Under the pieces are notes generated by a model. It did no database searches. It saw nothing but the letters and a program-made list of their open reading frames with translations, and was not told the DNA's origin. The translations under genes were made by a program, and so were the position numbers. A stretch of 64,000 nucleotides of DNA. It comes from a phage. Positions 40,949 through 41,404 of the stretch are shown here, piece after piece. The stretch lies in the sequence record PZ445488.1, one strand, 5' to 3'. Every line of letters begins with the position of its first letter. Positions within the stretch are counted from its first letter, which is position 1.

Positions 40949-41404
40949 TTATTTTAGATCTTCGGCCCAATCTAGTTTTAAGGGTTCTTTGTATTCACGG
41001 TCGAGAATAACCGGAATAGCTACATCACCACTGAATGATAGTTGGCCAACGTTATATGATAACGTTATATGTGGAGTGTAGTCGTCGAAATCATGAGTAG
41101 CACCTAAAGCTCGTGCGTACTGATGACGACATCTAAGATATTCGGAATCAAGAACTAAAACCAGTACAGCGCCGTCATCGGTTTTCCATACCTCAAGGTG
41201 TCCTGATTTGGCAACAGAATAACTACCACTAGATGTAGTATATGGTATGTTTACACGTGAATAACAAATTGTTGAATGAAGCTTTTCACGTGGTACTGGA
41301 TTAGGAATTCTTAATTTGCGCTGGAGGTCTTCCAGCGCATCAAGTGTTAATTCCGAAAATTTAGCTGCGACGTAGAGGCCTTGTGAAAAGTCCTCAAATT
41401 TCAT
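40949..41404 (-). CDS. 57B: gp57B-like 2H phosphoesterase (Acb1-type anti-CBASS cyclic-nucleotide phosphodiesterase)
   Basis: 151 aa; two H-x-T/S motifs (HSTI, HITL); position upstream of 57A as in T4. Confidence 0.65.

Follow-up and report, generated by a model that had tools for sequence, protein, structure and literature searches.

The 64,000-nucleotide stretch of phage DNA analysed here (sequence record PZ445488.1, hereafter the window) very probably carries orthologues of both anti-CBASS genes of phage T4, acb1 (gene 57B) and acb2 (gene vs.4), whose products, judging from their sequences and from the T4 analogy, would jointly remove the CBASS messenger by degradation and sequestration. 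Both genes are orthologous to and syntenic with those of T4, have intact reading frames, and conserve every published functional residue.

The entire window is colinear with positions 35579..99366 of RB69 at 92–98% nucleotide identity, with a dozen small cassette differences breaking the colinearity. By this sequence comparison, the window comes from a T-even phage of the RB69 type, in the genus Mosigvirus. In a nucleotide comparison, a 2.2 kb segment spanning 57B was 100% identical to a GenBank entry covering part of Escherichia phage CEV1, and 95–98% identical to many RB69-like phages; for the vs.4 region, identity to RB69 and related phages is ~98%. acb1 and acb2 lie 14 kb apart on the minus strand, in a block that comprises early and middle genes in T4, and both loci are syntenic with T4 and RB69.

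The acb1 gene occupies positions 40949..41404 (-), a complete ORF including the stop codon, and encodes a 151-residue 2H phosphoesterase of the anti-CBASS nuclease type. The initial annotation had described it as an Acb1-type 2H phosphodiesterase corresponding to T4 Acb1, and this description held in every comparison. The product matched the Pfam Acb1 model (PF23474) over profile positions 1–144 of 144 (E = 6.5e-59, 198.2 bits against a cut-off of 27), phrog_755 (E = 1.9e-65), and, through residues 9–148, the crystal chains of FBB1 Acb1 (PDB 7T26/7T27, E = 9.2e-59). Alignment to T4 Acb1 (gp57B, NP_049750), which had been proposed as a check and whose length is within one residue of the window protein, gave 86% identity over all 151 residues with no gap. 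RB69 57B (NP_861847) differs by a single substitution, having E where the window has K66. A single-sequence AF2 model of Acb1 reached a pLDDT of 38 and was discarded; a 2H phosphoesterase fold is predicted instead from the 7T26 match (140 residues, E = 9e-59). NCBIfam contains no model covering Acb1 or Acb2. Immediately upstream of acb1 lies the tail-fibre chaperone gene 57A (41404..41634, -; Pfam GP57, E = 2.4e-24), whose stop codon overlaps the acb1 start (TAATG); 57A and 57B overlap in T4 too, and acb1 is placed as in T4, directly downstream of 57A and ahead of the internal-protein genes. By sequence, this ORF is gene 57B/acb1, the orthologue of T4 Acb1.

The residues required for Acb1 function have been defined in T4. 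The catalytic tetrad consists of H44, T46, H113 and T115; H44 is needed for activity, and the double mutant H44A/H113A is catalytically dead (PMC9117128). Y12, W74, F107 and W147 stack on the bases, and E141 reads adenine through a contact with its N6 (PMC9117128). All nine residues are identical in the window protein (Y11, H43, T45, W73, F106, H112, T114, E140 and W146), with the numbering shifted by one relative to T4. Two H-x-T/S motifs had been claimed for 57B, and both were found in the translation: the first catalytic HxT motif, at 41270..41278 (-), is H43-S44-T45 (T4 H44/T46), and the second, at 41063..41071 (-), is H112-I113-T114 (T4 H113/T115). None of the 21 substitutions separating the window protein from T4 Acb1 falls on a listed functional residue, and the 11 C-terminal residues that form the lid (141–151) match T4 apart from E147 in place of D148. 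The same HxT/HxT tetrad, stacking aromatics, adenine-reading Glu and lid Trp are found in Acb1 of T4 and of the Erwinia phage FBB1.

Because of its names in databases, 57B could also be read as an RNA ligase or 2',5'-RNA ligase (LigT-like) that acts on RNA ends rather than as an anti-CBASS nuclease. phrog_755 is described as 'RNA ligase', the RefSeq records of T4 and RB69 name 57B likewise, the 2H fold is common to the 57B family and LigT, and the product gave a weak match to Pfam 2_5_RNA_ligase2 (E = 0.027). That match scored 14.9 bits, under the cut-off of 27, against 198 bits for the Acb1 model. Furthermore, the T4 orthologue, 86% identical, was found by activity-guided fractionation as an enzyme that degrades 3'3'-cGAMP, and deletion of acb1 sensitises T4 to CBASS (PMC9117128). 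The window protein also keeps every stacking and lid residue that is specific to the capture of cyclic nucleotides. On the bit scores, the activity of the T4 orthologue and the conserved capture residues we rejected the RNA ligase reading, which we regard as very improbable; the name looks like a legacy label from the shared 2H fold.

The second gene, acb2, occupies positions 26261..26527 (-), a complete ORF including the stop codon, and encodes an 88-residue helical-hairpin protein of the cyclic-dinucleotide sponge type. Its ATG at 26527 sits within a longer mechanical ORF starting at a TTG at 26695, the extension of which overlaps vs.5 in another frame. A Shine–Dalgarno-like GAGGAA precedes this ATG by 8 nt, and translation from it gives the same 88-residue product as the annotated RB69 and T4 genes. 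Directly downstream, the orthologue of vs.3 (26046..26261, -; RB69ORF117c type; 40% identity to T4 vs.3, E = 7e-12; phrog_2037) has a start codon overlapped by the acb2 stop (TAATG). Directly upstream, vs.5 (26517..26741, -; phrog_1986, E = 6.7e-39, and the RB69 annotation), with an N-terminus 78% identical to that of T4 vs.5, overlaps the acb2 start by 11 nt, where T4 has a 36-nt gap. Two genes upstream lies vs.6 (26741..27103, -; Pfam Gly_radical, E = 2e-18), and the cluster also contains regB (Pfam REGB_T4, E = 4e-69). The order regB, vs.3 orthologue, vs.4, vs.5, vs.6 is the same in T4 and RB69, as expected from the earlier placement of this ORF in the vs.4 slot by gene order.

That earlier placement was positional and had been left unconfirmed by sequence. 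Profile searches, for which a lack of Acb2 similarity had been named as the adverse outcome, gave the opposite: the product matched Pfam Acb2_Tad1_hairpin (PF24729) over profile positions 1–58 of 58 (E = 4.4e-18, 65.7 bits against a cut-off of 27) and phrog_717 (E = 3.6e-28), the set from which Jenson et al. defined the Vs.4 homologues (PMC10097602). It matched the crystal chain of T4 Vs.4 with cGAMP (PDB 7UQ2) with E = 9.8e-31, and is 66% identical to T4 Vs.4 (NP_049728), which likewise has 88 residues and occupies the same slot. Identity to RB69 vs.4 (NP_861808) is 99%, the sole substitution being M where the window has L33. An 11-sequence Acb2 profile reached the structures of the founding Acb2 from Pseudomonas phage PaMx33 (8H2J/8IXZ) with E = 7e-8. 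A single-sequence AF2 monomer folded as a two-helix hairpin (pLDDT 81.2; helices 16–47 and 54–82, turn 48–53), whose best PDB matches in Foldseek were 7UQ2_A/B (E = 7e-6, TM 0.67). The ORF is thus identified as vs.4/acb2 by its sequence as well as by its position, and the orthology of both products to the characterised T4 proteins appears unambiguous in these comparisons. Neither ORF is a chance reading frame, judged by the same matches. At both loci the gene order is identical to that of RB69, with no difference of functional note.

In T4 Vs.4, cGAMP is contacted by Y8, H11, K23, R79 and F82, S74 and the helix cap T12 form a second group of functional residues, and the hexamer interface is formed by L29, F33, A66, A73 and A77 (PMC10097602). 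In the alignment, the cGAMP pocket of the window protein (Y9, H12, K24, S74, R79 and F82), the helix cap (T13) and the interface residues (L30, F34, A66, A73 and A77) are all identical to T4, with the window numbering being that of T4 plus one in the N-terminal half. K24, A66, A77 and R79 are invariant in the 11-sequence alignment, and conservation is 90% or higher at Y9, H12, T13, L30, A73, S74 and F82. In PaMx33 Acb2 (p26; PDB 8H2J, 8H2X, 8IXZ), Y11 and K26 of the dinucleotide pocket align with Y9 and K24 of the window protein.

Identity to T4 is unevenly distributed along Acb2: 33 of 37 residues are identical in 1–37 and 20 of 23 in 66–88, against 5 of 28 (with one indel) in 38–65. This hypervariable middle (26333..26416, -) comprises the distal halves of both helices and the turn, and its length varies between homologues. 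Compared with the Mosigvirus AlbertHofmann, 7 of its 28 residues are identical; in the DNA, the first 77 nt of acb2 are identical between the two phages, the next 14 contain one difference, and then the alignment collapses. The T4 pocket-closing positions Y37, A57, L60, D61, T64 and T68 are I38, M57, V60, Q61, K64 and Q68 in the window, so that the segment includes most of the three-fold-pocket positions (I38, M57, V60, Q61 and K64). Positions 61 and 68 of this pocket vary freely among the T-even homologues in the 11-sequence alignment.

With a middle third almost unrelated in sequence to that of T4, the affinity and ligand range of the window Acb2 could differ from those of T4 Vs.4. It is conceivable, although we think it rather unlikely, that residues 38–65, which behave like a swappable cassette, are under diversifying selection, in which case the ligand range of the RB69-type allele would be unlike that of T4; the pressure on the segment could be the retuning of a second ligand pocket, or escape from host factors that recognise the sponge. 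Cao et al. have reported that the three-fold-pocket positions differ among Acb2 homologues (PMC10312549), and since this variability is already published, the hypervariable middle is a small extension and no new phenomenon. As a separate observation, Acb2 of two phages of a different subfamily, Phapecoctavirus TSP7_1 and ESCO5 (Stephanstirmvirinae), is 63–65% identical to that of the window, and their middle segments are closer to T4's than to the window's; this likeness is a hint that phage lineages have exchanged acb2 horizontally.

The divergent middle bears also on whether the vs.4 orthologue might sponge a non-CBASS signal, such as the 3'cADPR of Thoeris, rather than cyclic dinucleotides. 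Ten Acb2 homologues inhibit type I Thoeris, one of which, Acb2_43, does not inhibit CBASS (bioRxiv 10.1101/2025.08.24.671296), and the middle of the window protein is highly diverged from T4. Acb2_43 binds 3'cADPR through extra N- and C-terminal beta strands together with L6, V7, H5, K19 and K55 (bioRxiv 10.1101/2025.08.24.671296), whereas the window protein has the length and termini of T4 Vs.4 and keeps the whole T4 cGAMP pocket, with its divergence from T4 lying outside the dinucleotide pocket. A Thoeris-type sponge was rejected on these grounds (intact T4 cGAMP pocket, T4-like length and termini), and its probability is only slight.

The idea that acb1, acb2 or both are decaying remnants, giving no real double counter-defence, has a precedent in T2, whose vs.4 (NC_054931 60503..60922) lacks the EDIKGY segment including the cGAMP-stacking Tyr8 and is reported to carry a binding-site mutation (PMC12657218), and a possible cause in the Panoptes guard systems of types I and II, under which phages that lose acb2 and acb1, respectively, are favoured (PMC12657218; PMC13577387). 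The window, RB69 and T4 keep EDIKGY, however, and both window frames run to full length, uninterrupted by a frameshift or an early stop codon, with every functional residue in place. The proteins also share 99–100% identity with those of numerous Mosigvirus phages from independent isolations, which indicates maintained selection on acb1 and acb2, and T2-like decay was rejected as next to impossible.

Reading the two genes as an anti-CBASS nuclease and sponge, we predict from the T4 orthologues how the window proteins would act as enzyme and hexamer, which ligands they would accept and what phenotype they would confer in vivo. By analogy with T4 and FBB1, Acb1 would act as a metal-independent 2H phosphoesterase in which a cyclic di- or trinucleotide is gripped by stacking aromatics under the C-terminal lid. 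Its HxT motifs would cut 3' of adenosine via a cyclic-phosphate intermediate, so that 3'3'-cGAMP, cUA, cAAA and cAAG would be destroyed and cGG would be spared. By analogy with T4 Vs.4, the Acb2 hairpin would assemble into a hexamer trapping three cyclic dinucleotides at its dimer interfaces, through Tyr/Phe stacking and Lys/Arg/His contacts, and so keep the signal from CBASS effectors. T4 Vs.4 is known to form a hexamer that binds three cGAMP with a Kd of about 30 nM (PMC10097602), and a hexamer with three cGAMP bound at nanomolar affinity has been shown for PaMx33 Acb2 too.

Degradation by Acb1 and sequestration by Acb2 would have partly complementary ligand ranges. T4 Acb2 has a dinucleotide range wider than the cleavage range of Acb1, and leaves cyclic trinucleotides unbound (PMC10312549). 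PaMx33 Acb2 binds cyclic trinucleotides also, via R67 and T74 (PMC10312549), a pocket that in proteins of the PaMx33/JBD67 type is a feature of a subgroup and does not define the family (PMC10312549). T4 Acb2 keeps only the Thr of this pair, and fails to bind cA3 even after the substitution D61R (PMC10312549). In the window protein neither residue is present, their places being taken by Q61 and Q68; binding of trinucleotides is therefore not expected, and these would probably be left to Acb1. T4 lacking both acb1 and acb2 suffers a ~10,000-fold fitness loss on CBASS hosts (PMC11722364). By this analogy, the earlier wording 'layered counter-defence' would be a fair description of the window, one that restates the published T4 picture and adds no new inference (PMC10312549, PMC11722364, PMC12657218).

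Scans for sigma-70 promoters and terminators around acb1 and acb2 gave counts no higher than in shuffled sequence. A regular-expression scan found one T4-late-type TATAAATA at 41996 (-), inside gene 1 and upstream of 57A; in the vicinity of acb1 and acb2 it gave no clear promoter of the early or middle class.

Two other genes of the acb2 neighbourhood were examined. vs.6 is a stand-alone glycyl-radical domain and resembles GrcA, which in bacteria serves as a spare part for pyruvate formate-lyase. Near the cluster, the tk.4 orthologue (24171..24638, -) contains a macro domain (Pfam Macro, E = 1.2e-6; phrog_335, 'phosphatase'), and from this sequence match is possibly an ADP-ribose-processing enzyme.

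The internal-protein cassette adjoining acb1 is unlike that of both T4 and RB69. It includes the ORFs 40252..40515, 37230..37856 and 40584..40871 (all -), and the window has no p156, p124 or p125, the internal head proteins of RB69. Two of the cassette ORFs are absent from RB69 and begin with capsid-targeting-like leaders, MKTYKEFIAE (87 aa, phrog_13302) and MYTFNEFLAE (208 aa, phrog_2280); they sit near a homologue of IPI (Pfam IPI_T4, E = 3e-50). IPI and other internal proteins that are injected act against restriction, and the cassette beside acb1 is therefore a variable counter-defence spot.

Further differences from RB69 were found elsewhere in the window. About 550 bp of RB69 (47836..48386), containing RB69ORF087c and pin, the inhibitor of the host Lon protease, are missing at ~12200..12250. 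An insertion of 863 bp at 46779..47641 (+), between baseplate genes 5 and 5.1, is absent from RB69 and contains two overlapping ORFs, each in a frame of its own. The first (153 aa), whose N-terminus is GIY-YIG-like, matched the homing endonuclease family phrog_314 (E = 6e-18), and the second (134 aa) had no family match; the insertion resembles a homing endonuclease of the seg type that a frameshift may have split. Small ORFs at 12860..13156, 19323..19589, 23586..23783, 23962..24189 and 31960..32160 (all -) have no counterpart in the RB69 region. The one at 19323..19589 has a signal-peptide-like N-terminus, and the one at 23962..24189 encodes a DUF7202 protein (E = 2e-38). An adjacent pair of tRNA genes, Arg(tct) and Met(cat), lies at 38595..38749 (-), likewise in RB69, compared with a cluster of eight tRNAs in T4; Rfam and tRNA scans found nothing beyond these two known tRNAs. 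Scanning of about 20 of the roughly 140 ORFs, comprising the neighbours of the two genes and the window-specific ORFs, against Pfam and PHROGs revealed no further anti-cyclic-nucleotide genes.

In a phage collection, Acb2 homologues were present in 1,238 records and Acb1 homologues in 1,490, including 135 (Acb2) and 153 (Acb1) with at least 95% identity to the window proteins. The totals by host genus are similar for the two genes, which only suggests that they co-occur across phages. Among the papers searched, none mentions RB69 alongside either protein. For T4, the nuclease–sponge pair has been described before, and the finding for the window is correct and already known. Its main value lies in annotation: many records, including the RefSeq entries for RB69 and T4, call these genes 'RNA ligase' or 'hypothetical protein', and the RB69 records keep the old names 'RNA ligase' for 57B and 'Vs.4 conserved hypothetical protein'.

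The presence of both genes also helps to predict host range. Type I Panoptes fires once Acb2 sequesters its decoy dinucleotide (PMC12657218), and type II Panoptes defends against phages expressing Acb1, triggered by the degradation of decoy nucleotides by Acb1 (PMC13577387). With acb1 and acb2 both intact, a phage would be expected to withstand most CBASS systems, yet to be a target for Panoptes guard systems.
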